Positions 42,606 through 64,000 of a DNA stretch of 64,000 nt are shown here, one piece after another. Every line of letters starts with the position of its first letter. Position 1 is the first letter of the stretch. Under the pieces are notes generated by a model. The model worked only from the letters and a program-made list of their open reading frames with translations, was not told the origin of the DNA and made no database searches. The translations under genes and the position numbers were made by a program. The stretch is from Phoronis australis (lineage: Eukaryota; Animalia; Phoronida): assembly GCA_002633005.1 (NCBI GenBank), contig NMRA01000106.1, forward strand, positions 105,655 to 169,654. Direction: 5' to 3'.

Positions 42606-44884
42606 TTTATTAAAGACATGACCAGTAGAAAAGAGAACAATGCCGTGTCAAAGAACAAAGCTGAGGGATATCAATGGTGACAACAGAACGCCATATACCA
42701 TGTATTTCCGAGAGAATCTGGATGAAATTAAACTACCGACATTTACAAAGTACTGCTCTAAACAGGTGGCTATGCCACTCTGCTCAAAAAACTGGGAGAT
42801 TCCACACAGACCGATCAAAAAGTCAAAAGTTAAAGCATACAGCAGTCTTGTTTCCTCAACCATAAATGCACTTGAAGTGAAAACCCAAACAAATAATTGA
42901 CAAAAAATGGGCGAAACAACAGATATTCAAAAGACTGCTTTTAGCACCTTCTTGGTAACACAAACCAGTACTTCGACCTCGACTTCATCCTCCAATGTGA
43001 TTGGTCTACTAAGTCACATGATATGCAAATCCCCATCAGCGTTTAACAAATTCTGCTCCACAAAGTATGGCAATTTGACATTCAGACCGTTTTCAGCTTT
43101 AATTACACGGTATAACAATGCACAACTAAGCAGATGTTAATATTCTTCAAATACAATTTTGTACATATCATAAGTATAAGATCCTTTTACTAGCCACTTG
43201 AAACAACACTAAAAAACAGCTCCAAAATCACCCATAATGCATAGCAGCTACTAAATGCAAAGAAAATACGCTGTGCATGTGACCAGTGCGATAGCTACAT
43301 CTAATACTAGTTTGTGCAATAACTAAATCTAGAGTGTGAAACCACTAGCTCTAAGCTAGTTCTCGTGCATCTACACGGTTGCTGCTGTATGTAAATATAT
43401 GACCCCGCTTAAGACAGAGTGTAAGAAGAAAGATTGCATAAGTGCTTTTTATTGAACCACAATTGAAAAACACATGCAAGCGATCATGCACCAGTGAATC
43501 GACCCAGAGGAAGATATTATGAACTGTTCCAAGGAGTGTGCCTGCTATTGACAACTTGCAAATGAGAGGAAGAGCACACTGGGTTTTGTATTGCTTTTAC
43601 TGGTGTCCTGATTTGATATGTGCGCAGGACTTTTCTGTGCTTTTGACAATTTCGAATAGAAATGGAGAGACAGCACAAAAGGTTTTGATTTTTTGACAAC
43701 CAAAAAGCATTTGATCAATGGATGTCAATTTGGTGTCCAAAAAGCACTGGCTTAGAAAGGTAGCAACATTTCTATGAGGGGGGGGGGGGGNGCTGGTGGT
43801 TAAATAAGACTTCATATATAGAGTAAATAGTACCTAGCATTTCAAAAAAATAATCCAAAATCGAAATTCACAGCCATCATCACTGCGTGAAGTTGACACA
43901 CAACTTGAGCGCAGTAAAGATCTATACAGGTCCTTGGATGGACTGATCTACCAACAGATCACCAATGGCAGCCTAAGAACCTGTACAGTTGAAAAATTTG
44001 ACATAAAACCGTTTATTGACACTCCGACACATCAGTAATACTAGAATATAAGATCATCTTTGACCATTGGTGAGCAATGTCATCCAACCACGCAAGAGCT
44101 ATACTCGCGTAAAATTCAGTAACTTTGCCACCAGAAATTGTCGGATTACACAAACCCAATAAATAACTTGAACTGCCTCAACTATCTTGGACTTCCTTCT
44201 CCCAGTTACAGTCTCTCGACAAAGAGATTCTACAGTGACTGCACTCTTTAACTGCGACCGCCTAACAAAGTGGCTTGCAACTCAAAAAAATAAAATCATA
44301 TGGATTTTCCAAAAACACAAACACAGCAAATGTGTAATTTTCTAATATCATGTCACTGTCTCAACACGAACTAGGCACTCTGCGGACAACTGTGACTTCT
44401 TTATGGTTAGTCAAGCGGAGACAATTTAGTAAAGCCCTACTTCACCACAAAGTAATTCACAATGTAGCCAAAAACGGAGGTCCATTTCAACCCTCCCTCC
44501 CTAGCTAGACCACTGGCCACAACAAATGCCCAGTACGTGTAAAGATGACAAGTAAACTGTTGAGAGCCATTTTGTATACAAGCCTATTTCCAGGCTATTC
44601 ACAAGACAACCACTCATCACATGAGCAGTTTACACAGTTGTTTTCAAAAAAAGATAGAATATAGCTTCAGCGAAAAAAACGGAAAACCTCTGTTTGAAGC
44701 ACTCTGAGACTTTCAAAGAAAACATTTGGATTGTTGACAAAGTTGAGTTTAGATGTTGAAAAATGACAACTGGCAGTAGATCTGTTTTTGAAAACTACTG
44801 TATTTAAGATTGGCTTCTGAAGTGGTATTGTAAAGGCAGACTTTTTAGGTAGCTGCCTTGGCATGCACACGTCTGCATGGTGAC
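42606..44884 (-). other. Probable Argonaute 3' UTR with candidate poly(A) signals
   Basis: Follows the stop codon. AATAAA on the minus strand at 44012-44017, 43448-43453 and 42606-42611. True 3' end unknown. Confidence 0.4.
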
Positions 44885-44996
44885 CTAGGCAAAGTACATG
44901 ACCTTGGTTGTCTCGTTGTGGATCTGCACCGCACGTGCCATGGCTGACAAGTTACGGTCCTGCTCACTGCCGCCGGAATGATGGCTGCCCTCACCG
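44885..44996 (-). CDS. Ago1: Argonaute last coding exon ([10 protein letters not shown]...KVMYFA*)
   Basis: ctctttcag| acceptor; TAG at 44885-44887. Confidence 0.92.
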
Positions 44997-47900
44997 CTGA
45001 AAGAGAAGCAGACGGCTCACGTCACAATGAGAAAATCAGGCACCATGTGAATGTAGACAAGGCACAACTTATTGTCAGTGAAACTATACTAACACAAACA
45101 AAAATAAAATAAACCAGAAACTACTTACAATAAAATTTACAATAAGTGCCTGTATTAGACCTGTTAACAAGCTCACATGCACACACACACAAAACGCTTT
45201 CGAAACATTTTGTTAATAACAACATCAAAACTACAATTAGAAAGTGCCTCATTGGTGCTCGGCTGCATTGGTGCTAAATAGGTTATGGAGCAACTTATAA
45301 ACATGCCTGTGTATTTCACCAAATACCTACAAAATTATATACATACTTTCTGAAAGTGGGAAGCCTGTAGAATTTGTTTTTTCTTTACTGTGTACCTTGG
45401 CACTTTAAAGGAGAATGACACCCAATTTAATTAGTCTTTTTAGCGTCTTAATCGGTCTATATCCGCATCGCCTCTTATACAGTCAACCTCACCTTGTCGA
45501 GAGGTGTCGCGTTAACCTGTGAGGAAGGTGAGAAACAATGCAGCGACGTCAGTGGTTCGTCTGCAGAGTGAGTGCCGCTATATTGCGGTGCATCATTCCC
45601 ACTTGTCCGAACTATGAAACTATGAAGAAAGTGGGTATATCGTTTTTTCGACTTCCTCGAGAACCCGAAATGCTTAGGAAGTGGCTCGCGGTAGTGAAGA
45701 ATGAAAGATAGGCTGTTAATAGCAAGTATGAGGCCATGAAACATCTCCGTGTCTGTGTCCGGCATTTCGTCAACAATAATTTCTCTAACGAATTCCGGCT
45801 TACCAAAGAACTATCCATACATATGTTCCGTTGCCTGTGCATGTTCACGGCACATCTCTAGTATTTCTTGATCAGTGTATTACGGTTCGAACCGATAGCC
45901 TGTGAAACCTAACGATCCGACCCGTAAAGTCTTTGTCGCCTGAGCTCTTGACGTACTAAGTTGGGATTGGCGTGGGGCACCACAGTTGCCATTTATTAGT
46001 AGACGTTTATTATTCTGCATTCTGTTTCAAAATGAATTATTCTCATCCTAACCAATGCTTATATGAAACTGAAACAAACAAAGTCCGTCTCATTAGATAC
46101 AAGTGGTAATGCCTTGGAGTGCTCGTGAGTGCAAATGTTTTGAGAAGCCAGCAATGAAGAAACCACTGCGTTACTGGCTTTTGATGCCAGAAACAAAGGT
46201 AATTGACTGGGCACCGAGGCCGTGTGAGCGCACGTTAATTCAGTGTTTGCTGACAGAAAGCTGTTGTGAAACAATTACTCGATTTTATATGCTATGGTCA
46301 CATGTTAGGGGAATCTTTATTTAGAAATACAAATACATTATTCAAATCATTGTTACTGTACAACCTTTGCCCTGACGGTCTGTGGAACGGGAACCCGACA
46401 TCGTGGCCCCCGACAAGTAAGTAGATTTTCAGTTTCGTGGCCAATTCACATAAATTAAATAATTACGTGCACATTATTTCTTTGGCTCACTATTATAGAC
46501 TTTTCGTGACTGGAGGTTTAGCTTCCAACTCAAGCTGGTTTATGCTCGTGCCAGTCCCGGCGGCTGCGACGGGCCTGGATAACAAGCGTTTTGTGTGTTT
46601 AGAACTCAAAAAATCACAAGTATAACAACACAGATCTAGGTTTTCCTGTCTGTATTTCACGGAAGAATACTTTGAATTTATCTCCGAACAGACCCCAAAC
46701 TCCTCAGTGCTAGCGACCTTGGTAAACTTGCCTGCCGAACTTTGTACGCTACGGTGTGTCCAAATACCAGTAAATTCGTAACAGCAAAATAAAACAAGAA
46801 GTTTTACAAGAACTGTATTTTTAAGGGTTTCACATCGAAGTTTTATGATTTATTGGTGTTAAACGATGACTTCAAGCGATAAGCTGACACCAGTAACCCA
46901 TGTTGTGAACTGCTGAACAGACTGTGTGTGAAATCAATTACGTCATTAGATAATTTCAACATCTCCGTCTGCCGTCAGGTGATTCAACCGAACGTGCGGT
47001 TGTCAAGTAGAACTACTCGATCTAAATTGATACAAAATAGACTGTTTTTTGGGTGGCATTCTCCTTTAATTGCAAAACAACGGTGTTAATAAGATAGCCA
47101 TTAAACAAAGGCCCTTCCAAACCCACCCCCCCCACACACACGCCCGCACACAACTTCCAGTCACGGCACACCAAGATCCACACAACAGCCAGCGATACCT
47201 AGTGGACAAAGTATCTTCTAACCTGTCATGGTCCTTCTCCACCAGGTGGTAGCGTGCGCGGAAGGCCACAAGGTGGGCGTAGTAGGCGGGAGCAGGGATG
47301 GAGACACTACGTGTGCAGCGCACATAGGTGTGGCACAGTTGGTAGGTCAGCGACTGCAGCTCATCTGCCTTCAGACGGTTGTCATCCCACAGGACGTGGT
47401 AGTGAGATGGACGGCTGGTGCCCTGCAACATGGCCATCACACAACCAGTAGCAAATTTGTTTTGTGCATTATAAATATAATCCAGACTACTGACCCAATA
47501 CCTCCTTTATAAGGTCATTAGAATCAAAATGAAACAGTGACACTTATTTGGAATGCAGTACATAGTAATAATGAACATGTGATTTTGATAAACACCTCAC
47601 CAGTTGATCAGCGCTGAATCACAACACCCTAACTGTTTGAGAGAGAATGTCGGCAACTAAATCATCCTGCTCACTCACCTGGATACCAGCATGGCTGCAT
47701 AGATAGAAATCAAACTCGGTGGGGTGTGTGATGCCGACATCGACGGTGGTGCCGGCTGGAATGTTACCGCTCCTGCCGATCTGGTCCTTCTTCTCAGCGC
47801 AGAAGAGGCGCGTGTGATGGCGCTTCTGAACCACGATGAAGGTGATGCCTGGCTTGTAGTCTTTCTCAATGCTCAGACAGGCCTCGCGCACTGCCAGCAA

Positions 47901-50900
47901 CTCATGTTGCAGCACCTAAGGATAGAGAACACTCAGGATCAAGTATAACACAGGTGCCAGACAGCAATGACAACAACGGAGATAAGTAGCACATACGGAT
48001 ACTACCCAGGCGGGTACTGAGTTATCTGGACTTCATTCAAATCCTACCCAGGCGGACTCTCTTCAGACAGTCAAATTCTTTGCTACATGCTACATTTCCA
48101 CATTTTCCTGTAGCAAAAAGAACTGGCTTCATAAAGAGTTTGAAATTGCGATTATCAATAGACTCATTCTGAACTGGTAACCAATTTTCCAACAAGGTAG
48201 AAAAATGCCTGGAATAACTGAGCACACTTCTCAAAGGTTAGGCATTTTTACGCACGTCTGATGGCTTGAGTCAGACGAGCTAAGATACACTGTGAAATAG
48301 GTTAAACAAACTCCTTTTTTAGCTTAAAGCACCATACTTCAACTAATCAACACCAGCCAACCTACCTGCTGGAACTGCCCCTCGCTGACACCGTCGCGGT
48401 AGAAGATAATTCTACTGGGCTTGAACCTGGTGGATCTGTAGAAACTGAGCAGCATCTCGCGCACCATCGAAGCCAACTCTTGTATAATCTCCTGCCGATG
48501 TTGCTGGATGCGCACGGTTGCCGCGTAACGACTCGGGTGACCATCCATACTGCCCACCACGGCCGCGATGGACGGTTTGGATGTGTCGCCGGCTGGAGGG
48601 TGGGTCACATCGGCACCAAGGAAAATGAGTGGCTCATTGAAGACGGCTGGTCTGTAAGTGACAACATGACATATTAGCACAAGTAGCAGTATTTATGGTC
48701 TGTAAGTGACAACATGACATATTAGCACAAGTAGCAGTATTTATGGTCTGTAAGTGACAACATGACATATTAGCACAAGTAGCAGTATTTATGGTCTGTA
48801 AGTGACAACATGACAGATTAGCACAAGTAGCAGTATTTAATAAATAACATCACAGTAGGCAGTAGGATGTTATTGATGTGTGCCCACCCAGTCTGTCACA
48901 ATAGCTACATACCGGACAGTAGGCAGCAGTATATTGTTGTATGCCGTCCCCAGCCTGTTTCAATAGCTACATACCTGACAGCAGGCAGCAGTATATTGTT
49001 GTCTGACCCACCCAGCCTGTTTCAATAGCTACATACCTGACAGCAGGCAGCAGTATATTGTTGTCTGATCCCCCAGCCTGTCACAACAGCCACACACTTG
49101 ACAGTAGGCAGCAGGATATTGTCTGCCCCCCCAGCCTGTCACAATAGCTACATACCTAACAGTAGGCAGCAGTATATTGTTGACGGTCAGCAGCAGCATC
49201 TTGCTGATGTCTGCCCCCCCCCTCCCGGTCATAATAGGTGCGTACATCAAAGTAGGCAGCAGGATATTGTTGATGTCTGCCGCCCCGGCCGGTCATAATA
49301 GGTGCATACATCACAGTAGGCAGCAGGATATTGTTGATGTGTGCCCCCAGCCTGTCACAATTCTACATACCTTACAGCAGGCAGCAAGATATTGTTGATG
49401 CCTCCCAGCTTGACATTGATCTTCAGACAAAGATTGGACAGAGTCTGGGGTGATGTCTTGTTTACGTTCTTGGCTTGAACACACTGCGTGGCCAGGCCAA
49501 ACAGAATGTCACCCACACGCTTCACTTCAGCTGCAAAGACAATTACATTGGCATAACACGTGAAGGACAAACTTTAAGGTTAGGTCTGACTAGAAAAATG
49601 TCCAAATATACATTGGGACATCACACCTTAGAAATGGCTGATCAGATTAATATGCAAATTTCAGATACAATGATTCATGAACTATTCTCCAAAATGTTTT
49701 TAAGAGTGACTTTTAAGACAACAGGAGTCACGCAGAGCATTGAAATGTGCCCACGAATGCACCGCTAACAGTGTGCTTCTAGGGGTGTTTATTTGGAACG
49801 TAAAAATGGCCACTAGAGGGCGTAAAATACGTCGAATCCATCCGAAAACTTGTATGTGTCATTAAAGCTATATACCAAGTTTCATAAAAATCCCTCGAGG
49901 AACTTCTGAGAAACAGAGGAAAATGAAAAAATGAAATTGCCACTAAGAGGCTATAGATGACAAAAAACATAACTGCCACTGAGAGGAGCCACATTAGATA
50001 AAGTCGTCCGAGAATCATTGCCAGACACCCTCTTCACATTAGAAACATACATGCCAATTTCCACAACCATCCTTAGAGTAGTTTGATTGACAGAGGGGCA
50101 TACGCCAAATAACAAGACTCAAAAACAGTAAAAATAGCCACTAGGTGGCTTAAAAAACCACAAATTGAACCGTAATTTGGAGGATAGTGTCAACTCACAG
50201 ATATCTATCTGCCAAATTTTATGAGAATCCGTTGACGATCTTTGAAGATAGAGGTAAAATTGAAAAAATTAAAATTGCAATTAGGGGGCACACCGGAAGT
50301 CCGATCCATCTGAAAGTCATCATCGTTTCTTGTCAAGTTCATATACATACACTTGCTAAATTTAATAAAGATCTTGCAGAGGGTTTAGAAACAGCCATGG
50401 GCGTAAAAAACTGCCACTAGGAGGCGCCGCAGTTGTTGAGGTTGTCAGAAAATCATCGTCAGCCCTCCTCTTCACATTAGGAACATACAAGCATATTTCC
50501 ACAATCATCCTTAGAGTGGTATGGTTGAAAGAGGTGCAGATGTCAAAAAACAGATTCGAAAACAGTAAAAATGGCCACAAGGTGGTGCAAAATGCCTTGA
50601 ATTTAACCGAAAACTGGATGATAACGTCACCTCACTAATAGATACCTATCTGTCAATGTTAAGAAAATCCATTGGCGGCCTTTTAAGATAAAAAGAAAAA
50701 TATAAAAAACTAAAATTGCCACTAGGGGGCACACCGGTAGCCTGATCCGTCCGAAAGTCATCCTCTGTTGTCAACTTCATATAAATACACCAGCAAAATT
50801 CAACAAAGATCCTGTAAAGCATCATCCGCCATCAGCTTCATTGGAACACATCTAACAAAATCTAATCAAGATCCTGTGAGGGGTTTAGGAGATACAGCCA

Positions 50901-53900
50901 TGGGCGCAAAAACAAACATAACTGCCACTACGAGGCGCCATAGCAGTCAAAGTCATACCGAAAATCATTGTCAGTGGCCATCTTCACAGTAAGAACATAA
51001 TTATATACCAAATTTTCAAAATCATACCTACAGCGGTTTGGTTGATACCTGGCCAGACGTTAAAAACAGATTAAACAAAAAGTAAAAATGGCCACTGGGT
51101 GGCACAAAGTACCTCAAATTTGTCCGAAAACGGGAGGATGGCACTATCTCACTAGTAGATTCCTAACCGCCAAATTTTATGAAAATCCGTGGGGGACCTC
51201 CGAAGATACAGAGGTAAGAGTAAAAAACTTTAATTGCCACTACGGGGCACACTGGTAGATGGAAAGGTCATCTGCCAAATCTCATCACGATTCTGTGTGG
51301 GGTTCAGGAGATACTGCTGCGAACACCGGATGCCCAGACAGAGATGATGGAGATATGCGACCACATATAAATAAGTGGGCGCATAAAAATCAAAAGTAGG
51401 AAAACACGAAAATGAAGTAATTTAGAAAAGCGTACCAGCATTTTTGATATTTCACCTTTAACATTGATATCAGCACAAATGCCTGCATGCATCATGTGAC
51501 AACCTTATCACACTAACGCCCCCAACTGATGAACTGCTTTTTGCTCTCTGACTGCAGTGCGTCACCACACTCAAAACCTGTAGCAAGAACATTGAAATGC
51601 ACCCCAAAAACTGTGGAAGGTGGGTTCACACACCCAGTGTTCGGAAGTGTAGAATGAGCACTGGATATATTTGCTGGCAGTTCAATTATGTCTCCTAACT
51701 CACCATACACAGGTGTCTTTCCTGGCAGAACGACCACAATCAGCTGTAGGCCACTGTATTGGTTCTTCAGGTATCTGAACATAGGCTCCACCTGGTCAGG
51801 ACCTGTGGCGTATTTGCAGAAGCACGGCTGGCCTATCATAGTCATGCCAGCGTCGTTGGAGATCCTCTGAAGCTGGGCGGTAAAGTTCCTGTAGGATAGA
51901 AGACGGGTGTTGCACGCACACACACACATCCCAGGAGATGAACCGAAAAATGACTAATCAAATACCAAATGGGTGGAGGCTATGAGCAAATATCAACAGG
52001 GAGGCAGATTTCCAATATGTAGGGTATTTTGTGTTATTTGGAATTTAAAAAAATTAAAGTGTAAAGAATGCAGTCTCACACGCTTTACAACACTGAGGGT
52101 GTTTTGTCAACAGTCTTAGTCTGGTTGTAACCAAGGTGGTCGTAACTAGTGATTTTAATTTGCTCACTTAAATACGGTTGACAAATCTGCATACAGAAAA
52201 TTACCACCTGAACTTCAGTTGTTATGTTTCACTCCCCTTAGCATATCGCATCATAATTCACAGCAATCCAATATTGAAGAGGCAACAAAATCTAAGAAAC
52301 ATTTTACACCACTTACCTCTTGTTCTCAACTGGTCCGCGACTCAGTCAAGAAGTGATTTCCGGATTTGCAAAAAACTGACAATTCGTTATTCATCGCGAC
52401 CATTCCCAGCAGATATAATGACACATCGTTGACCTCAACCAATAACAAATTGACCGTTGTTTCAAAGCCCAGAAATCCTCTCCAGTTTTAAACCAATTAC
52501 AGAACAGTAAGCGGTCTTAATCAAACATTGTTTATTTGCAATGGAAGTCAGGTTTACAGTCCACTTAACTAAAGTTAACCGACTTAACATTGTATTTAGG
52601 AGTGTGCAAGAAATGACACACATCACATTCATAGAGCAAGGTAAGTCAGGGTGTCCATACCTGAGGGCATCTTCGCGCACAGTCCTCTGGGGTGCAAAGC
52701 AAGCGATGGCCCACTTGTGAATCTCAATGCCGCTGAAGAACTGCTTGCCCCGCATGTCCCACACACCCTGATTGGGCAGCGCTTGAGCTTTGGTCTGCCA
52801 ACAGAACGACAGGTTTACACACGTGCTGCACTATACAAGGTTGTCATGACGTCAGTGCTAATTACAAAAGGTCAAAAAAAACCCCAAAAACTCTTTTACA
52901 AAACAATCTTGGGATTACAACACGAACAAAACTGCATAATTACGTTATCTTGTGGTCTGTTACATAACACATTTTATACGAGACAGGCCCCCACTTTGAT
53001 CTCTTGAACTGATTAAGAACGAAATTCAAGCACTTAGGCTGAATGCAAATAATAGTAACTGAATAAGTAATCTATGAAAAAGACAAAATGCCATTTTGCT
53101 AAGAGCAGTTATTTAAAAACTACAAATTCTTGCATCTTAAGATACTGAAGCCTTCTAAATTAGTCTTAAGCAACTAATCATGGCTAGCAAATGTTAGAAC
53201 AAGAAAAACAAATGTAAAAGAATAACTCACAAAGTATTCAAAAACTACGAGGTTCATTACACCAGTATATATATATATATATATAAGATCAGTAGTTACC
53301 CAAAAAATAAACTAGGAATGTTGGCTGAATGCGAGAGACTCAAAATTCACGCCCCTCTGTGTCGGATAAACCTTCAATAGGTAAGTGGAGCCAATAGAAC
53401 AAACAAGTAACTAGTGGCAAAGACAGTAGAGAGCTTTATAGTCAAACCACAGTGGTTGCAAGACCATTTTCAATGCCCCAAATGATTCATAGAGAGATGC
53501 ACAAATTACGAGAAATGATAAAGGAAATTTTTGGTCAACCTAGAATATGAACTTGGAGATTAATGTATAAACTACATGATCTGCTCAATGAGACACTGAA
53601 AATGAGCGCAATAGCCAACAAACCATCTGGCATCTTAAAGCAAATAATATGACTCAATGATACCACTCCCGTAAGAAAAAGAACTCAAAGAAAGAAGACG
53701 GAAAGAAAAACGCAGCACCGGGTAAGTGAAACAATGAAACCACACACGCATACCATGGTTCGTACAAAACTTTGACAAAAGTTCATAAAAACTACAAGCC
53801 TTTAAAAACTTTTTAAAATTTTCATAGTGACAATTTCTATCATCACAACAAACTTGTCAAAGAACTTCAAACTATCAAGTCAGTTGACCCCTTTCATCAA

Positions 53901-56900
53901 CCATGTGATAACTTATTTTAACAGTAAAATTCTCATTTCAACAATATCTACCACTTTAAAACAATAACTCTTGAATTTTCTGATGCAAGTCTTGTGCTTA
54001 TAACCCTGTAATTACAGCATTTCCCCCATTTTAAAACCGCGTCCCTTAAAATAATCCACCTTGCTTCAGTTGCATGTGCATTGTGCAATCCCAATCGCAC
54101 ATAATACCACAAGCGCCAAAAAGCAATTTTGCAGAACAAACAATGAGTGACACGTGACATAATATTTTTTTACGAAAAATGTTACTTAAGATTTTAAGTT
54201 TAAATAAAATGCAAACGTAAATGTGCACTTGATGAAGAAAAATGGCTGCTATTTACGATTTTTTTAATATATGTCTTTGCAGCAATAAAAAAAACTAACA
54301 CAGCATACACCCACTTTAACTTACAGTTTAGCTCTTTCAAAAACTTTCAAGACTAAAAGTGAAATTCAAGGGTTTTTCAAGGACATGATTAAATTGAAAG
54401 ACTACTCAACGCCACGGCTTTAAATTCAAAGGCTTTTCAAGACTGTACGAACCATGTACATCCACACAACCATCACAAGGAAGTGAAGCTTGTCGAGGGA
54501 TTAGTGCATCTGGCAGTGGTAGAGAATAACGCTGAATATGGCAATCACTGGATGTGTCTTTAACTGACAGGGGTACGGAGAGGAAAGTGCTGAAATCTGG
54601 GCAATGATATAAAAATGATAGTAAGACATGCTGTCACCGAGACAGGCTGGCTGCGGAACGAATGCACAGACACTAAAAGAGAGGAGACAGACTTACTGCT
54701 TCAGTGGTGTGATACAAACTAGACACATCGTCTCTCAGTGTGGGCACCGCCGCCACTCAGTGGACGACGCTTACGCGTTTTTCGCTTACCCGACCGCCGT
54801 ACTGGATTTTCGGTGGATTGAGGACCCTGCCCGTTACGTCCGCCATCTGATAATTAACGCTGATACCAAATGTTTGTAGGTGGGGGTCTGCGTTGAAATT
54901 CGCTTTCCGCACCTGGTGTCACACAGACAATATAAGGCGAGGGTTAAACAATTAGAACAGCAAAAGAGAGTAAGATAGAGCGAATGTGTTTGTGTGTGAA
55001 ACACCTAACACACGTCTAGAGGGGGACGGGCCCTAGACATGCGCCAGCCGTGGAACGGTAAGCGCATGCAATGCGTCTTAGACAAACAGCGGGGGCGCAA
55101 TTCTCTTTATGACCTCGCCACATGACGGTGGTGAAAGGCTAAAGAAAGACTGCCTACCCGGCCGCCGTACTGTATTTTGGGCGGGTTGAGCACGCGGCCC
55201 TGGAGCTCAGTCATCTGTGTACTGACGCTGACGCCAAACGTCTGCAGGTAGGTGTCATTGTTGAAGTCGGCCTTTCGCACCTATAGCACGAGACATCCAC
55301 AATCATGAGACACCTTGAGCATGCCGGAGAAGGATGACGGTCCATTCGCATTTATCAACACATTCCAATGTTATGTTTTCAAAATAAAAATAGACTTTCT
55401 CAGAACTCTGCCAAACTTGAATTGAATTCTTGCCAGAATTATCAGGTAGTTAGTTGAAATTTTACGACATTTTTGTCAAACTCCTGCCGGAGTTTAATAT
55501 CATGTCTTGATGCGGATTGTATATTTACGAATGGTAATTTCTTGCGGTTTCAATAACATGTGCGAGAAAGTTAACCAGAGTTGAAATGGAATCTAGTAAA
55601 AAAGAAATGGACATTCAGGAGTGGTTTTGAGCGCCAAAACTCAGGCAAATTTTGATATTGTCCAAGTTTATTTTGAAAACTACAACAGAAAACATGCTGA
55701 TATTAAGAGACCCAAATTGACTGCAGGAATATTTAACTGGACTGATAAACATGATCATTCCTTTACAAGAACAGAAATAAAGCTTGCACACTACGGGTCA
55801 TTAAAGTAATTTGTGCAATATATCATAATGTGAACACATTCTGTGGAATTGAAACAAAATTTTCAAAGAGAGAATACGTTAATGATATCATATTGTTTCC
55901 ACGGTATATTATTATTTTTCGGGCCAAAGTTTTCTGAAGAGACCGTCCTCATCTCCGAAACACTCAGACAGACATTGATTTTACACTATGTACAAACCAC
56001 GTCACACTGAATTTGTTCATATGATCAGATGTCACCTTATAAAAACGTGTATGCTGAGAACATTGTACAGTGGAAATTTACAAACATGAAAGTTAAAACT
56101 TAATAAAATAAAATGCTGTCGTTACACAAAATATGTATGTAATCATAAAGATTTTTGTGAACCTCTATTGAAACAAAGCAATAAAAGGTCATACCAAGGT
56201 GTTGATTTCTTTTTCACGGTCAGGTGCAGATCTGGCAGTGGCCTAAAACAATAAAGCAGTATCTATCTGAGTCTTAAGAATACAGACAACCTCCCTCCAA
56301 GCTTGGCGACCACCTAACCTTTAGTGGGTTTGACAAATGAACAACTGATTATAAATTTTGTTTAACTCAAAACTAAACCAACAGCTATGCATTTTAACAC
56401 TTATCAAAACAGCACTCTAGAATTTTTATGATTGTGCTCAACAAGGACACAATGCTTCCTGATGTGACCACAAGCCGCATTAGGCGACCTCACCCCCTTA
56501 TTGGCCAGCTCTAATCTATCAACTGGGTTATCAGCCTGTCTCCACTTCTCACACCAATGTCAGTTTCACTCAAATCAGCATCACAACAGACATATATCAC
56601 ACTTCCCCACCACTTACTTACATAGACCCTCCCCCTTACTCTGAACACCACATACCTTGATCATGGTGGATGTCTGCATGTCAGTCAGTTTCTTGATGCA
56701 CCGCTGGCCGCCCACAATGTTGCACACTTCCAATGGCAAGTAGGTGTGTTTTTGCTCCTGGCCCACCTGTAGACACGGCAGGTGGGGGTATTGGAGGCGG
56801 ATCTTATAGCGCTCCAGGAAGTACTTGGCAACAGTACATTCCACAGTCTGACCAGACTCCAGTTGCAGAGGGAACCTGAGGGTGGACAGTACGAGTGAAA

Positions 56901-59900
56901 GATAAAGCTTATGAGTACTGCAGTAGTAACGGGCATTTGACCAAAAGCGTTAGGACTCATTCCCCCCCCCCCTTACAAGTTTTGGGAAAGGACAGAAACA
57001 CCCAACACGAAAGTCTATGATGACCACAATCTGAAAATGTCACGTTGCACCTAAAAGCAAATGCACCTGGCAAGACCTGTATGATATCCCCATTTGTTAA
57101 ACACACCAGTCCAGAGGTATTTGTTAAACACACCAGTCCAGAGGTATTTGTTCAGCTGAGATAGCTTTCAGCAAGAACTCACTGGTAACGCATGTGTTAA
57201 AGTAAGAAACAGACCATTTTATGCTCATAAAGATATGTGGATGACAAGTTACCCAGACTTCTGCACTGACTAGAATGAAGTAGAAGAGTTACAACTTACG
57301 ACTGAGTTTGGGCAGGCTTCCTCGTCACGTTGCACACACGGTACTTTCTCTTCATGGCACCACAGTGAGTGATTTCCACCTTCAAGCCTGAAGAGCAACC
57401 ACAGCACGTAAATTATGTCTGCATATAACCAACATACACTATGCACTGAGTGTTCAGAAAAAATGACCGGGAATTCTCTTTCATGACGGCTGGGTTAGAA
57501 GTAGCATTTATTGTCAGAGTAGTCATAAACCATGACTAAAAGGGCATTAACACCTAAGTTAGTAAAGTAGCTTAGCCATTCTTCAATTAGAATTTCGCCT
57601 CCAAGATGGAGAAACAGTATTTTGGCCGATTGCTTTTGTCATGTTCTGTGTATGCCCATACATTATACAGTAAGTAACGAAAGTGAGAACGTAACATAAC
57701 ACTGAACAAAGAGTACCACATTTTGCTAAGACGCAATGGTGAAACAAAAACATTATTGGAAATTAGGTTTAAGGACATTAACCAAGAGTGAAGTTCTTCT
57801 ACAATTTTTCTTAAGGCAATAACCGTCAACTCAGGACCACATAAAATCAAAAACGACTTCTTCCAATACACACGCATGGGACTGTGCTCCACAAAACACT
57901 CCAAATAAGACGGTCACCTCACATAAGTTGTTATCATACTGCACTCTAAGCAGTAATCTCCATGGCCTGCTTTAACACGCCAATGTTTGCCTGCAATTGC
58001 AAGGTGAATGATTTGCCCTGCCAGTCTCCAAATACATTTGACCGAATAGCCAGTGAAATGCCCCCCAAAGCTGCACTACCAACAGTATGCTTACAGCTGC
58101 ATTTATTAGTAACACAAAAATGCCCACTAGATGTCAGATATGGCAAGCCTGCTGGAAATCAGTAAAATGTCCCTATTTGTCAAGTTATGTGAAAATTCTT
58201 CAAGGACCTCCCAAAACACAGAGGCAAACGTAAAAAATCTAATTGACATTAGCAGTGTTCTCCACGGCCTGTTTTAACTCGACGCTGTAACGAGTTTGGA
58301 TTTTGCCGCGTCGAGTTTGGAAAATGCGCGTCGAGTTTAGAAAGTGCTGCGTCAGGTTTGAACTTTTGTCCTGGCTTGGTATTTCAGCCCTCAACACTAA
58401 AGCAGTGCCAGATTAACCACACTCAAGCTCATTGCAGCACTTTAGAGGCAGTCAACACTATATGTATAACTTCGTAAGACACTACAAGAGTTTAAATTTC
58501 AATTAACAAAATCTGCAAAAATCTTTAAATAACAAACATTTCATGGAGTCACCTAGCTTGCTTAATTAACTGACTAATCTACTTTGTCATTCTAACTTTA
58601 AAATTTTGCAAGTCAATCTGTAAAAAAGCAATTTAATTTGCTTAATAAAGACAATTTTGATTTTGACTGACATCTAGTGGCAAGTTAGAACTTTATGAGC
58701 TTATTAAACTTGACAACAGGTGTCACTAAAAACTAGGTCACATCAGAACTCATGTTAGTAGTACTTAATATGTCTAATTGATATTAAAATTGGCATTGGT
58801 ATTATTAAAGGAACTTTTGATCTTTTGTTTGCTGCTGTGGGTCTGTCAAATGCTTTGGAGGAATTATGAGATGCATTGGTAGGAAAGCTAAACTTTGAAG
58901 TGTCTAAAAAGTAGGTCACACCAGTGTAGTGTACAGTTTTAAATCATATATAAATACCTCCAGCATAACCATGCTTATGGTTAGACTCGAGACAATGTCA
59001 GTAACTGACATTTAACATTTGCGTCGAGTTTGGAATTTATAATGTGGAGAACACTGATTAGGAGTCACAAGATGAGTTGGATCTATCGGATATAGTCATC
59101 AAGTGTTGTCATGTTCCTAGGAATACTCTTGCCAAATTTCAAATAGACCCTACAAGGGGTTTAAGAGATACAGCCGCGGGCGCAAAAAACAAACATAATT
59201 GCCACGAATAACTGCCGAATCTGCCTGCATAGTGCTAGCTATATTTGTCTCGTCTCTCCACTCATTACAGCACCCAGACCCAAGCATGAACAGCACTTTA
59301 AGTACATGGGGTAGAAACATTCACCCCGACAACCACTGGTGACGTGGCTGCACACCGACGTCTGAACCTGTGCTTGTGTGTGTATGTGTGTGTGTACCTC
59401 GAATCTCTTTGGTAAACTTGACACGCTGGGAATCACTAAGTGGTCGCCTGTGTTGCTCGTGTAAGTCAGTAATCTCCAGCACTTCCTCCAAGAACTTGAT
59501 GACTGGCTGACCCTTGTAGAACGCTGTAGCCGACACTAGAGATAGAATACACGCGCCAACACGTTAGCACAGCTGACATACCAGGCCACAGGCTTACCTA
59601 CCTCGAATCTCCCGGCTGAACTTGACTCGCTGTGAGTCTGTCAGGGGGCGCCGGTCATGCATCTGGCCCTGCAGTTCAAGCACTTCGGCGACAAAGTCAA
59701 CCGCCGGCTGCGCCTTGTAGAACGCCGTGGCCGAGACTGCGGTGGGAACACAGAGCAGGGGGTCAGAGACAGATTTCTTAGAAGCAATTGTTCCCGGGGT
59801 TACTCCCAGTTATCGTGGGGTAAGCCGGACACACTACATGCTGTCTCAGTAACAGTCACATGTCAAGCGTATGACAAAAGTCAAAGTGCATTTGTTTGAA

Positions 59901-62900
59901 TCATTAATGACATCTCTGAGATGTTCCTGGCTTTAGTTTTTTCAGTTACATCTTTAGCGCAACGATTTTGTTATTGAAACACAATATTTTTACACGAGAT
60001 GAATAAATAATTCATAAAAGTCTACAGTATCCGATATTTTAAAACTAGCAATATTGAACCATCAGTGAGTATGATAGTTGACACAATCTGCTGACAGATG
60101 CATTTTCTTGGAGTATCTAAACAAATTAAAAAACACATGTTGTTCCCTCTCACTGGGGAAAATCCTAAAGGTGTTTCTCAGAAATCTGCCTGCCATACCC
60201 TCCACACAGCAGGCGCAATGATGCACAATATGTTAAGAATGACTAGAGTATGCAATTTGAACACTTAGTGTAAGAACGTAATCAACTTCAACTCTTAAGC
60301 ATTAGCAACTAGCTACATGATTAAGGACTCTAAATCAAATATACATTTAAGGTTATCTAGGACCTTACTAAATGATCTCAACTATGCTTCACACTACTGT
60401 GTCTTTATTATGGTCACCTGACATTTTGAAATCAAATTTTCCTGTTCAAGAAAGGTACATTCATAGCAAAATAACCCTCAGCCAATTTTCACTAAAACTT
60501 TTCTAAATGAAAACTTTATGTTAGGTCTCAAAAACGCTACTGGGATTTTGCTTTAAAATGCCTAGTTTTCAAGCACCGAGCAATATACGAATAAGTCCTC
60601 TGTTTTTTTTACAAAAATGCCTAGTGTTTTGGGAGTTAATTTGGGTTAATAATCAAAAATTCATAACAGTGTTTTTGAGACATAATGTAAAGTTGTCATT
60701 TAAAAAGTAAAATCGACGGGGGGTTATTTTGCTATGATATGAATATAACTTTCTTGCAAATGAAAGTATGACTTAAAAACGTGGTTACATGGCAATAATG
60801 AAGGCAGTAGTAAGAAGCATATTTTTAGAATCCTCGACCTTTCTCCGTCAGAAATTATATGCTTTTAATGGATGACAAAGCATACTTGTTTCGATATTTG
60901 ACTTAGTTGAGGTTGCTTATTAAGGTCCTAGATAACCTTAAATCACTTTTAACCTATGGTCAGTTCACAGAAATACAGGGTGCCTCACAATGACGGAACA
61001 CAAAACAGAAAAAAATAATGAAAATTCACGCTATTTGCTCAGATACCATTTGAAAATTACATTCTTTAATGAACGCCCTCACTCATGTGCTCTTATTACC
61101 ACAGCTCTTTGTGAAGTGTTTCAAATGTTCATTTTACATGTTTGTTTACTTGTTCATGACAAGCTTAGTTCAGCTTGACCCAGACAAATATGAATGCATC
61201 AACATGGTACCTCTCACGGAGTCATCGACCTACGGAAACACTAAAACAACTTCCGATCCTTATTTTATATTCAGACCCGAATCCAGATTATTTACAAACA
61301 ACCGTCTACATGGGGAAAACCACAAAAAATAACACCTGATCTGAAGCCAGCATTCATAGAGAAACTGTTATCATACGTATTATGTAATGCAGACTAACAC
61401 CACAAACAGAGTGATGAGAGTTCACTCATTATACATCCATTTGAACAATGTAATTTTCAAACGCCTCAGTAAGCTAATTTCTCATTATCAAGCAATAATT
61501 TTAAAATATGCCCCGTTATGCTGAGACACCCTATACAGCCAGAAACAAATACTCAAAACAAAAGTTTAGAGATTAGCCACACCACAACGTAACAATTTGC
61601 TTAGTAACCAGAAAATTTGAAATATGAAGGTAGTGCCCACTCCTACAGCTAAATCAAAAGCAGAGTGACAAGAAGTTAACACAGCAGTGCCACATGGCCA
61701 CTGTTAAAAGATAAACACCAGCTAGAACCGAAATATTAACTCAAGAGACAGCCAGTAGGATTAAGGAGAAACTCAAGATCAGCTGTATGGACAGCAAACT
61801 AGTCCATGAGAAAAATGATAATTTAGGTGAAATGTTATGCATGTATATGTACTCATTAGAAGCATGGACGCCTTCTGGTGGAACTAAAGATTGCAAGTTA
61901 AAGCTTCCTTTGACGGGGTAGCAACGACCCAGCCATTCATCGCATCCTAATGACACGAACTTAACAAGGGAAACAACCGTTCTGTGCCAGACTGGCTGCA
62001 GATATTTGAAGATACACCATCTCTATACCCATGGCAGTGGAAGTTAAATAAAGTTTCAATTGCCGTAGAAATGTCAAATTACATCAGTGCACAATATTGT
62101 GAACTTCCAACAGCCAATTTCTGCAGGTAATAACAGTGTCAATTATGATATACCCAGCTTCTCAAAAGAAGAGTTATCAACTTGTGTTTTGCGGGCACTT
62201 ATAAAGCAGATCTCTTTTAACAGAGGAGAGCTAAATAGGTCAGATGGAGTTGCCATCTGGCAGGCACCAAGAGAGTTAGTGGTAGTGACAACGGACACCT
62301 CTACACCGACAGCTAGGCGAGAGTGGTGTGAGTGCGGATAGTACGAGATTACCGTCTATGTTCAACATCATTTTCCGCCAGCTTGGTCGGATGCTCTGGT
62401 GGAAGCCGAACCACACTTCACGGCCACCACCAAGTGGATGGTAGTAGTTGTCTGGTGGTGAGAAGAACGATCGACCAACTGGTGTGTAGCTAGATAAGAG
62501 GAGAATAAAAAATGCAGGCAATTAATAGCAGGCAACAAGCGATGAAGCTTACCGTCAATGTTCAGCATCATTTTCCAATGGGACGGCCGGACGCTCTGGT
62601 GAAAGCCAAACCAGACCTCGCGCCCACCTCCCAGCGGGTGGTCATAGTTGTCCGGAGGTGAGAAGAATGAACGGCCAACAGGGGTGTACCTGGTTGCAGA
62701 CGGAAAAAATAACAGAAGTTTTGTGGGTTAGCAGTCACATGACACAGCACCTCACAGCAGGACGCTGCTTAGTCACACAGACGTTCAGCAAATAGGCCAC
62801 ACAGAAGAACACCGACGCAGAATTTTAAACGCTTAGTTAATGAATAAAACGAAATTGAAAAGTGAACCCCAATCAGCTTGTTGCCACAAAGATGAATTCC

Positions 62901-63556
62901 TGGACTGAAAACATACTAGAGAAATGTTACAAAATGTCATGAATTACGATAAAAATTAAGGGACAACAAAGACCGCTTCTTTCCAGTAACTGTGAACTCC
63001 TAACGAAGGGATACTGGGCTCTTGTCATCAACTCAAAATAACAAATCAAGATCAAGGTCATCATTTGTCAATGGAAGATGTGATATTTGCAAGCTTTAAA
63101 AGTCTCTGTTATCGTACCTGTTCAGCAAATATATCACTAAACATCAATCCCTTGTTTTGAATAGTGCTCCAGTAATCCACCAAAAATCTGCTTCATAACC
63201 CATGTGCTTCCAGACAACCATGGAAAGATACCAAGGAAGGTCTATCAAGAACACCAGACACAATAACTTGACACTGTAAAGACTGACTACTACTGCTATT
63301 AATTTGTTTTTGAACGGATGGCCATTTTCATGTACATGAGGGCAAAGGGAGTGTAACAAGATCTGCATATTTACTTCATGCTGGGAAGATGGCGCATGAT
63401 GACGTCGAGAGCCTGTGTAGCATCAAAGGGTATCTGGCTGACATTCCCCTCAAGAGCCTCGTCGAGGGCATACAAGCTGACCTCGGAGACCCATTTGATG
63501 GAAACTTTGAACACGCGGTCCCGTCCTTCGCCAGGCAGCGTCACTTCTAGGTCCAC
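44885..63556 (-). CDS. Ago1: Argonaute, miRNA-class (invertebrate Ago1 / vertebrate AGO1-4 type), 5'-partial; 14 exon positions, three of them duplicated
   Basis: Spliced frame of 2247 nt (748 aa + stop) using one copy per pair. N/L1/PAZ/L2/MID/PIWI motifs, DEDH tetrad, C-terminal MYFA*. Most exon sizes match those I recall for human AGO2. Confidence 0.95.
45409..47065 (+). mobile_element. Full-length non-autonomous Kolobok-like DNA transposon with a THAP remnant, in the last Argonaute intron
   Basis: TTAA on both sides; TIRs AGGAGAATGACACCCAA / TTGGGTGGCATTCTCCT; stop-interrupted THAP frame at about 45585-45775. Confidence 0.85.
47223..47422 (-). CDS. Ago1: Argonaute PIWI exon (GTSRPSHYH...[14 protein letters not shown])
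   Basis: 200 nt; catalytic His; AG/GT sites. Confidence 0.95.
47679..47915 (-). CDS. Ago1: Argonaute PIWI exon ([13 protein letters not shown]...SHAGIQ)
   Basis: 237 nt; KRHHTRLF motif; |gtgagt donor. Confidence 0.95.
48366..48651 (-). CDS. Ago1: Argonaute PIWI exon (PAVFNEP...GADVTHP...QEII...[12 protein letters not shown])
   Basis: 286 nt; catalytic D, E and D. Confidence 0.95.
48648..48839 (-). repeat. 4 x 48-bp tandem repeat spanning the splice acceptor
   Basis: Units start at 48648, 48696, 48744 and 48792; one mismatch. Confidence 0.95.
48845..49410 (-). repeat. About 8 degenerate ~60-bp repeats of the exon 3' end and splice donor
   Basis: Repeated atattgtt...cagcctgt.wcaatagctacatacc.gacag.aggcagcag, matching the exon end NNILLPAVR|GTATGT. 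Confidence 0.85.
49371..49530 (-). CDS. Ago1: Argonaute MID exon (EVKRVGD...[18 protein letters not shown])
   Basis: 160 nt; AG/GT sites. Confidence 0.95.
49770..51350. repeat. Complex internally repeated element (about 450-500-bp units) rich in GCCACTAGRKGGC motifs
   Basis: About three degenerate units; related fragment at about 59080-59230. Confidence 0.65.
51704..51888 (-). CDS. Ago1: Argonaute MID exon ([10 protein letters not shown]...LPGKTPVY)
   Basis: 185 nt; AG/GT sites. Confidence 0.95.
52661..52794 (-). CDS. Ago1: Argonaute exon ([19 protein letters not shown]...EDALR)
   Basis: 134 nt; AG/GT sites. Confidence 0.95.
53754..54456. mobile_element. Intronic MITE
   Basis: TIRs CATGGTTCGTACA / TGTACGAACCATG; 3-bp TSD TAC; ttcaag subterminal repeats. 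Confidence 0.75.
54790..54912 (-). CDS. Ago1: Argonaute L2 alternative exon, copy b ([41 protein letters not shown])
   Basis: 123 nt; caccag| and CGG|gtaagc sites; open frame. Confidence 0.88.
55158..55280 (-). CDS. Ago1: Argonaute L2 alternative exon, copy a ([41 protein letters not shown])
   Basis: 123 nt; ctatag| and CGG|gtaggc sites; open frame. Confidence 0.88.
56195..56242 (-). CDS. Ago1: Argonaute small exon ([16 protein letters not shown])
   Basis: 48 nt; ttttag| and |gtatga sites. Confidence 0.92.
56656..56875 (-). CDS. Ago1: Argonaute PAZ exon (FPLQLESGQ...[10 protein letters not shown]...QTSTMIK)
   Basis: 220 nt; AG/GT sites. Confidence 0.95.
57300..57387 (-). CDS. Ago1: Argonaute PAZ exon ([28 protein letters not shown])
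   Basis: 88 nt; cttcag| and |gtaagt sites. Confidence 0.95.
58253..59056. mobile_element. Intronic non-autonomous DNA transposon (hAT5-like)
   Basis: TIRs CAGTGTTCTCCAC / GTGGAGAACACTG; 5-bp TSD ATTAG; cgtcgagttt subterminal repeats. Confidence 0.75.
59398..59535 (-). CDS. Ago1: Argonaute L1/PAZ alternative exon, copy b ([45 protein letters not shown])
   Basis: 138 nt, phase 1/1; ctctag| and G|gtacac sites. Confidence 0.88.
59602..59736 (-). CDS. Ago1: Argonaute L1/PAZ alternative exon, copy a ([44 protein letters not shown])
   Basis: 135 nt, phase 1/1; ccgcag| and G|gtaggt sites; not in the ORF track. Confidence 0.88.
60351..60937. mobile_element. TTAA-flanked MITE (Kolobok/piggyBac type)
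   Basis: TTAA|GGTTATCTAGGACCTTA ... TAAGGTCCTAGATAACC|TTAA. Confidence 0.8.
60976..61533. mobile_element. Tc1/mariner-type MITE
   Basis: TA|CAGGGTGCCTCA...TGAGACACCCTA|TA imperfect TIRs. Confidence 0.6.
62353..62489 (-). CDS. Ago1: Argonaute L1 alternative exon, copy b ([45 protein letters not shown])
   Basis: 137 nt; ttatctag| and G|gtaatc sites. Confidence 0.9.
62553..62689 (-). CDS. Ago1: Argonaute L1 alternative exon, copy a ([45 protein letters not shown])
   Basis: 137 nt; aaccag| and G|gtaagc sites; TGCTAAC branch-point motif about 40 nt upstream. Confidence 0.9.
63375..63556 (-). CDS. Ago1: Argonaute N-domain exon ([16 protein letters not shown]...RHLPSM)
   Basis: 182 nt; ttctctag| and AA|gtaaat sites; earlier exons lie beyond the window. 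Confidence 0.93.
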
Positions 63557-64000
63557 CTAGAGAAAGAATCGACAACTAAATCACATTCAAATGAAAACAG
63601 TTTTAAAGCAATTCCAATGCGTGTTATCCAGCCTGTGCACAGTTTGGTTACTAGAGCATGCAGTCAATGACTTATTTGACGGCAATGACAGTTCCTTATG
63701 GCTTGAGATCAGGCAGGATACATGGGCTTGCCATGGACAGTCATTTTATGCACTGAGCACGGTTTCAAGCTCTAACCAACCACCAGTTGTTGCCTAGCTC
63801 AGTAATATTTTTTAACCAGAGTAAGGAACAAGTTCAGAACAATTTTATATCTAAGTTTGTAATCTTTGGAGACCAATGGCCAGTTATTGCCACTATATGC
63901 GGAACAAGCTCCACCTGGTGGCAAATCTACTCCATGTTTCAAACACAAACTGTTCATGCACTGCACCCTAATAGGAATACACACAGTAACTGTAACAAAT

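Follow-up and report, generated by a model that had tools for sequence, protein, structure and literature searches.

Choice between the two copies in the exon 17 cluster of Dscam (Yue et al. 2013) reportedly depends on steric hindrance together with RNA structure and is said to have been tested experimentally. Here we describe an Argonaute gene with three tandem pairs of homologous exons in a 64,000-nucleotide (nt) stretch of DNA (hereafter the window) from the phoronid Phoronis australis (GenBank assembly GCA_002633005.1, contig NMRA01000106.1, positions 105,655 to 169,654). The gene lies on the minus strand; counting one copy per pair, the window contains 13 of its coding exons. As a whole, the evidence is best explained, at a probability of roughly 0.8, by three old duplications with all six copies spliced, likely one per pair, giving four to eight protein cores that differ by presumably regulatory swaps.

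Like Dscam exon 17, pair 3 of this gene is a two-exon cluster whose spacer structure, here predicted only, may add to steric exclusion. The pairs also resemble the homologous tandem mutually exclusive exons (MXEs) of PMC5740500 in their equal phase, a predicted donor-to-branch-point distance below 50 nt in two pairs, a length that is not a multiple of three in one pair, and a dominant and a minor copy; the available main text of that paper has 0 occurrences of Argonaute or AGO, and the Phoronis gene differs by its three clusters, each apparently with its own safeguard. Shrimp Ago1A/B/C are likewise functionally distinct splice isoforms of one invertebrate Ago1 gene, but they differ by N-terminal variation and a 27-residue PIWI insertion rather than a homologous exon swap ('exon' and 'mutually' have 0 occurrences in the accessible part of PMC3510085). 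In human cells, LIMD1 and TNRC6A are brought in when AGO2 Ser387 is phosphorylated or replaced by an acidic mimic, and in AGO3 the acidic residue, Glu390, is already built in (PMC5507773, in part); these sites and Tyr393 (PMC4647457, in part) lie in the same L2 segment as pair 3, and there the acidic versus neutral state governs LIMD1/TNRC6 recruitment. Humans thus vary positions 387 and 393 by phosphorylation and paralogues, whereas the Phoronis gene exchanges Asp/Asn and Tyr/His by splicing, an invertebrate effect being suggested by analogy only.

The exons and predicted elements, in order of transcription, are as follows (AGO2 numbering was taken via alignment of a mussel homologue to human AGO2):

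63375..63556 (minus strand): constant exon EN, N domain, AGO2 113-173; first coding exon within the window; junctions to 1a and 1b
62553..62689 (minus strand): exon 1a, 137 nt, L1 linker, AGO2 173-218; Pfam ArgoL1; spliced reads
62490..62552 (minus strand): spacer intron 1a-1b, 63 nt; best predicted branch-point candidate 31 nt from the donor
62353..62489 (minus strand): exon 1b, 137 nt; Arg at the Trp211 position, Trp at 210; spliced reads
59602..59736 (minus strand): exon 2a, 135 nt, end of L1 and start of PAZ, AGO2 219-264; spliced reads
59536..59601 (minus strand): spacer intron 2a-2b, 66 nt; single consensus branch-point candidate (predicted) 38 nt from the donor
59398..59535 (minus strand): exon 2b, 138 nt, one extra residue; major copy; entry reads and an X1 contig exit
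57300..57387 (minus strand): constant exon E3, PAZ; junction evidence
56656..56875 (minus strand): constant exon E4, PAZ to the start of the helix-7 region; junction evidence
56195..56242 (minus strand): constant exon E5, 48 nt; E5-3a reads
55158..55280 (minus strand): exon 3a, 123 nt, L2 linker, AGO2 383-423; Asp 387, Tyr 393; Pfam ArgoL2; major copy
55082..55173 (minus strand): predicted hairpin including the 3a donor, 37 pairs, -39.7 kcal/mol
55002..55050 (minus strand): second predicted hairpin of the 3a-3b spacer, upstream of a 92-nt AG-free zone
54913..55157 (minus strand): spacer intron 3a-3b, 245 nt; folding z -3.06
54790..54912 (minus strand): exon 3b, 123 nt; Asn 387, His 393; Pfam ArgoL2; minor copy
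52661..52794 (minus strand): constant exon E7; junction evidence
51888-51704, 49530-49371, 48651-48366 (minus strand): constant exons E8-E10 (MID/PIWI)
47915-47679, 47422-47223, 44996-44885 (minus strand): constant exons E11-E13 (MID/PIWI), the last with the stop

The layout agrees with the original prediction: all six paired exons lie where it put them, adjacent, homologous, similar in length and equal in phase, each with its own AG and GT ends, one open frame and no stops. A self-tblastn of the window found no further duplicated Argonaute exon except degenerate E9-end repeats, in line with the claim that all other exons are single. Joined as 1a-2b-3a, the gene encodes 749 amino acids with the terminal stop as the sole stop, the N-terminus lying beyond base 64000. 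The protein is 83-87% identical to the top 70 matches listed, mostly mollusc, nemertean and chelicerate Argonautes. In quick trees with Shimodaira-Hasegawa-like approximate likelihood ratio test (SH-aLRT) support, here built with no small interfering RNA (siRNA) Argonaute as outgroup, it falls inside the lophotrochozoan clade (99) and outside the bivalve-gastropod clade (98), beside annelids with no resolution among them. By its Pfam order (L1-PAZ-L2-MID-PIWI) and its grouping with lophotrochozoan Argonautes, the gene is a microRNA-class Argonaute (miAGO/Ago1). Alignment and Pfam both uphold the predicted placing of the pairs in L1 (exon 1, ArgoL1), L1/PAZ (exon 2) and L2 (exon 3, ArgoL2). The residues at AGO2 positions 597, 637, 669 and 807, those of the catalytic tetrad, read DEDH and lie in the constant MID/PIWI exons (44885..51888); these four residues are the evidence for the slicer competence originally proposed.

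RNA evidence came from three stranded raw-read runs of one study (X2, X3 and X4), of each of which ~18-19% was read, and from one contig set (X1); runs and contigs share one species label and match the exons closely, and junctions with fewer than three reads in a run were left off the junction table. Pair 1 was entered through EN-1a (5/5/13 reads in X2/X3/X4; 23 in total) and EN-1b (5/8/17; 30), 1b being used about as often as 1a. Pair 2 was entered through 1a-2b (10/4/6; 20), 1b-2b (8/3/19; 30) and 1b-2a (1/3/10; 14), with 2b taking 50 of the 64 entry-junction reads, and left through 2a-E3 (2/5/15; 22). Pair 3 was entered through E5-3a (9/6/21; 36) and left through 3a-E7 (16/6/26; 48) and 3b-E7 (1/3/0; 4), so that 3b accounted for 4 of 52 exit reads (95% confidence interval 2-19%), from two runs. 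All tabulated pair junctions read CT..AC, on the expected strand. Evidence for the exit 2b-E3 is confined to an X1 contig, since a short repeat (59362-59400) beside the 2b donor truncates the reads. Thus 1a, 1b and 2a are used substantially, 2b and 3a are dominant and 3b is minor.

No a-to-b junction, skip or 63- or 66-nt deletion appeared in the table (threshold three reads per run), while each junction class of pairs 1 and 2 drew 20-64 reads, and neither E5-3b nor 3a-3b was listed at the same threshold. The predicted alternative use is therefore borne out for all six copies, with no tabulated co-inclusion. Three of the four combinations of pair 1 with pair 2 are represented among the tabulated junctions, 1a-2a being the one missing at the three-read threshold. 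With all six copies used and at least four protein cores, the "up to 8 isoforms" of the original prediction become only a ceiling: four or more cores stand, while eight are not established, given three of the four junction combinations and four exit reads for 3b. In the messenger RNA, 356 nt separate exon 2 from pair 3 further downstream, a distance over which single 150-nt reads cannot phase the two. Coupling between pairs 1 and 2 was dropped as a candidate: 1a-2a is untabulated, yet p runs from 0.003 with 0 reads up to 0.59 if 6 are hidden. Usage varied by run, both for 3b (3 of 9 reads in X3 versus 0 of 26 in X4, p 0.013, uncorrected) and for 2a (1 of 19 in X2 versus 13 of 45 in X3 and X4 together, p 0.048, uncorrected), which hints at regulation of exon choice. 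On the other hand, the PIWI junctions E10-E11 (20/6/19), E11-E12 (20/18/17) and E12-E13 (15/9/19) were single among the joints listed; to that extent, from E10 to E13, the predicted constancy of MID/PIWI holds.

The copies are well diverged. Nucleotide identity is 106/137, 93/139 and 88/123, and amino-acid identity 41/45, 28/44 and 30/41, in pairs 1, 2 and 3 respectively. The proportion of differences at synonymous sites (pS 0.76, 0.74 and 0.67) far exceeds that at replacement sites (pN 0.07, 0.25 and 0.17; Fisher p ~1e-6 or lower for each pair), and both copies of every pair are under purifying selection. With synonymous sites near saturation and replacements few, the duplications are old and both copies constrained. 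Misassembly (already judged unlikely in the original prediction), allelic variation and fragments of a paralogue are exceedingly improbable sources of the duplicates: the copies differ at 23-33% of bases, mostly synonymously, an L2 pair is found in many other species, and in independent runs both copies are spliced to identical flanking exons, RNA junctions that already refute such an origin. As to the earlier claim that exactly one copy per pair completes the protein, the reading frame enforces it at pair 1 alone, where joining 1a to 1b would shift the frame; zero or two copies of pair 2 or 3 stay in frame. Retention of any of the three spacers brings in a stop.

The three pair spacers (63, 66 and 245 nt) are the shortest among the 16 introns of the gene. 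The motif-predicted donor-to-branch distance is 31 nt in pair 1, 38 nt in pair 2 (from a single consensus candidate) and at least 161 nt in pair 3. A distance below 50 nt is the steric criterion of PMC5740500 (in the portion available), and the predicted 31 and 38 nt of pairs 1 and 2 fall below it. Exclusion in these two pairs is thus likely steric: the predicted branch point, 31-38 nt from the upstream donor, would be too close for the copies to splice together, with the frameshift as a second safeguard in pair 1. In pair 3, two stable predicted hairpins would fold the 5' two-thirds of the spacer, one of them over the 3a donor, and would probably hinder 3a-3b joining, less strictly than in pairs 1 and 2. 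Only 1 of 200 shuffles was as stable as this spacer, and the 3a donor window (z -3.7) is the most structured of 16 donors. Among 263 folding windows across 63300-52800 (10.5 kb), the top three lie in or overlap the spacer, including 55060-54961 in the second hairpin (z -5.1, rank 1) and the hairpin at 55082..55173 (z -5.0, rank 2). The AG-free zone before 3b (92 nt) is the longest of 17 acceptors and contains the pair-3 branch candidates. An Rfam search of 44000-64000 gave no match, and the spacer hairpins fit no curated RNA family.

Instead of short or compacted spacers, competing long-range pairings of the Dscam type, between a docking site and selectors, might enforce the choice. In the minimum-energy fold of 55200-54700 a short helix closes around 3b, and 8 nt of the spacer, as read from the sequence, are complementary to the 3b donor; nevertheless the strong folding signal comes from local structure, pairs 1 and 2 need no more than their short spacers, and no shared docking element with one selector per copy stood out in the inverted repeats inspected (25 of 74 and 25 of 109). 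We consider this mechanism distinctly unlikely.

Relatives were compared through isoform models within 23 lophotrochozoan (mollusc and nemertean) gene sets comprising 188 models. Single-model species, arthropod sets and Priapulus (given apart) stand outside this tally, as do the oyster second gene, Aplysia P0181 and the Tubulanus, Amphibalanus and Pollicipes pairs, which are paralogues because their differences spread across all exons. Exon 3 occurs in two versions in 17 of 23 sets (both Lineus genes, eight gastropod and seven bivalve sets) and also in the Priapulus models, whereas none of the 23 has alternative versions of exon 1 or exon 2. Mollusc models with both L2 copies (Physella, Batillaria) have the Asp copy before the Asn copy, as in the Phoronis gene. 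The remaining six sets have one version; Mya, Mercenaria and Dreissena are Asn-type only (37/37 models). A metagenome scan yielded two loci from 74 candidate stretches, each with a single Asn-type exon; in one, a bivalve-like locus (L002:98-734), E5 is directly followed by that exon, as would be expected if some clams have lost the Asp copy. A tree of 41 columns places 3b, but not 3a, with the Asn copies of molluscs (SH-aLRT 91, unstarred). From these comparisons, pair 3 probably shares ancestry with the molluscan pairs and goes back to the divergence from snails and bivalves. Pairs 1 and 2 seem confined to a narrower lineage, and no close relative of exon 2a was found, the best match having 70% identity.

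The L2 pair is thus already present in RefSeq/GenBank 'argonaute-2-like isoform X..' models of molluscs, nemerteans and Priapulus; these models differ in that pairs 1 and 2 are not alternative and other exons are used instead: EN (mussels, oysters, scallops, clams), E7 (mussels, clams), the 5' part of E10 (oysters, clams, several snails) and the last exon. Mytilus has three alternative exon pairs, and mussels, oysters and clams have at least three swappable blocks. The architecture is hence not peculiar to this animal: pair 3 is widespread in molluscs, and some of the blocks elsewhere include the catalytic-Asp exon. Multi-pair architecture is a feature of the lophotrochozoan gene, with this animal's particular set new among those examined. 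In oyster, clam and snail models (P0171, P0195, P0205, P0409, P0435, P0484 and others) the E10 5' alternative lacks the first catalytic Asp; E10 in the Phoronis window is one 286-nt exon with no such alternative. A second EN copy could lie 5' of the window (above 63556), EN being alternative in mussels, oysters, scallops and clams.

Several observations weigh against three exclusive pairs with an ancient third: i) up to six pooled a-to-b reads per pair could hide below the threshold of three reads per run; ii) all four 3b reads may derive from transcripts with both 3a and 3b, E5-3b not being tabulated; iii) the branch points are motif guesses; iv) at 0.69, the pairing probability of the 3a donor is within the ordinary range of the 16 donors, and 3a is the major copy despite its donor sitting in a predicted hairpin; v) 8 of 9 Physella and 6 of 8 Priapulus models contain the two L2 copies joined together, which suggests leaky exclusion at pair 3; vi) an approximately unbiased (AU) test does not reject a lineage-specific clade of 3a and 3b (p-AU 0.056), and 3b holds some Asp-class residues.

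Points ii and v also fit a reading in which pairs 1 and 2 are true MXEs and 3b is a rare in-frame cassette included after 3a, duplicating the L2 segment: just four reads support 3b-E7, 3a and 3b joined stay in frame, and their spacer is long enough for splicing. However, 3a-3b is likewise untabulated, 3b is under purifying selection (pN 0.17, pS 0.67), the spacer is strongly structured by prediction, and every model carries a single copy in 16 of the 17 two-version lophotrochozoan sets; we regard such a cassette as unlikely and retain one copy per pair as the better account.

The swaps concern defined positions. At AGO2 387, Ser in mammals, 3a has Asp and 3b Asn; at 393, 3a keeps the Tyr of AGO2 and 3b has His. 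The original link to regulatory phosphorylation sites is thereby supported. Among distinct molluscan L2 copies, Tyr393 is kept in 13/13 Asp-type and replaced by Phe in 3/15 Asn-type copies, and the Asp and Asn classes differ at 401 (Val 13/13 vs Ile 15/15), 406 (Thr 13/13 vs 0/15) and 384 (Arg 0/13 vs 15/15). The exon 1 copies differ at 4 of 45 residues, among them the Trp211 position, where 1b has Arg and 48/48 other segments compared have Trp. One insertion and 16 substitutions among 44 aligned residues, mainly in 227-246, separate 2a from 2b; 2a replaces Thr259, present in 90/90 other segments, and has Arg at AGO2 position 260, found in 1/90 and also in the Owenia model. Both exon 1 copies keep F181, and constant exons encode the PAZ 3'-end pocket and helix-7. 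Effects on duplex unwinding and guide 3'-end handling, as first proposed, therefore lack support. The swaps would alter surface interaction or regulatory patches, not catalysis, so that partner binding or regulation is the better inference. Trp211 of human AGO2 is surface-exposed, in a caveolin-binding motif (PMC11094075, in part), and Ser387 is not conserved in Drosophila AGO1 (PMC5507773).

Exclusive variants could also be near-equivalent, the copies persisting since any included copy must function. We consider this possible, though doubtful. The few differences in exon 1 fit it, and so does the occurrence of a single 387 state in many animals, Asn in spiders, Mya, Mercenaria and Dreissena and Asp in insects, ticks and Daphnia, together with the Asn copy directly after E5 at locus L002. 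Moreover, in the available part of one human study S387D had slight effects only and silencing was normal with Y393E (PMC4647457). Near-equivalence sits less well with molluscan classes that stay distinct at 401, 406 and 384, with the replacement of a Trp of 48/48 and a Thr259 of 90/90 segments, and with the run-to-run differences in 3b and 2a usage (both uncorrected); functional, regulatory swaps remain our preferred account.

The strongest new point is the widespread L2 pair at the Ser387/Tyr393 positions. A bolder proposal, speculative and in our view rather improbable, is that lophotrochozoans replace Argonaute paralogues with a splice code: their single microRNA Argonaute would be assembled from swappable exons, the ancient L2 pair would hard-wire the Ser387/Tyr393 switch on or off (Asp plus Tyr versus Asn, with Tyr sometimes lost), two private modules would be added here, one removing an otherwise invariant surface Trp, and cells would choose among types of RNA-induced silencing complex (RISC). 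If true, these RISC types would differ in their partners and in the balance between repression and slicing. Lophotrochozoan surveys of RNA interference (RNAi) count genes and collapse isoforms to the longest, and report that few lophotrochozoan phyla keep an siRNA Argonaute (PMC11114477, as far as available). Should the microRNA Argonaute prove to be a modular spliced family, its diversity has gone unnoticed in molluscs and worms, Aplysia, oysters and Biomphalaria among them, and the efficiency of RNAi in such animals could depend on which isoform is chosen. With its conserved exchange of Asp for Asn, the Ser387 position would offer a natural version of the debated human phospho-switch that is directly testable. 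In the full-text literature searched, outside subscription journals and supplements, no account of homologous alternative exons in an Argonaute gene appeared among the papers listed, and the consulted parts of PMC4793324, PMC11353429, PMC12479628 and PMC4244043 held nothing relevant; PMC13762713 contributed thresholds and a reference list citing the Dscam title of Yue et al. 2013. This is thus a known splicing mechanism in a gene family with no published account found, pair 3 being partly visible in public gene models.

Other features of the window are minor. Tandem arrays fill the E9-E10 intron (48648-49400): units of 62-64 nt that stem from the exon E9 end with its donor, and four of 48 nt that run up to the E10 acceptor and repeat its context as possible decoy sites. 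Within the E12-E13 intron, 45400-47070 is a high-copy repeat with a THAP-domain fragment, read on both strands, and related copies occupy 37479-38284 and 20715-21225. One candidate microexon, 24 nt long and in frame (45516-45493, minus strand), was rejected: it lies inside this repeat and has no junction among the joints listed, as against 43 reads for E12-E13; it would insert before the C-terminal serine cluster, where several relatives have insertions. On the plus strand, open frames at 14648-14965, 34180-34524, 37163-37525 and 39298-39579 presumably carry cadherin-repeat-like motifs; Pfam gave no match on the two of the four tried. The frames at ~14.8 kb and 34.3 kb are alike, suggesting a duplicated exon, domain or gene. 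A near-perfect tandem array with a 20-nt period, including an N, occupies 35718-36187.

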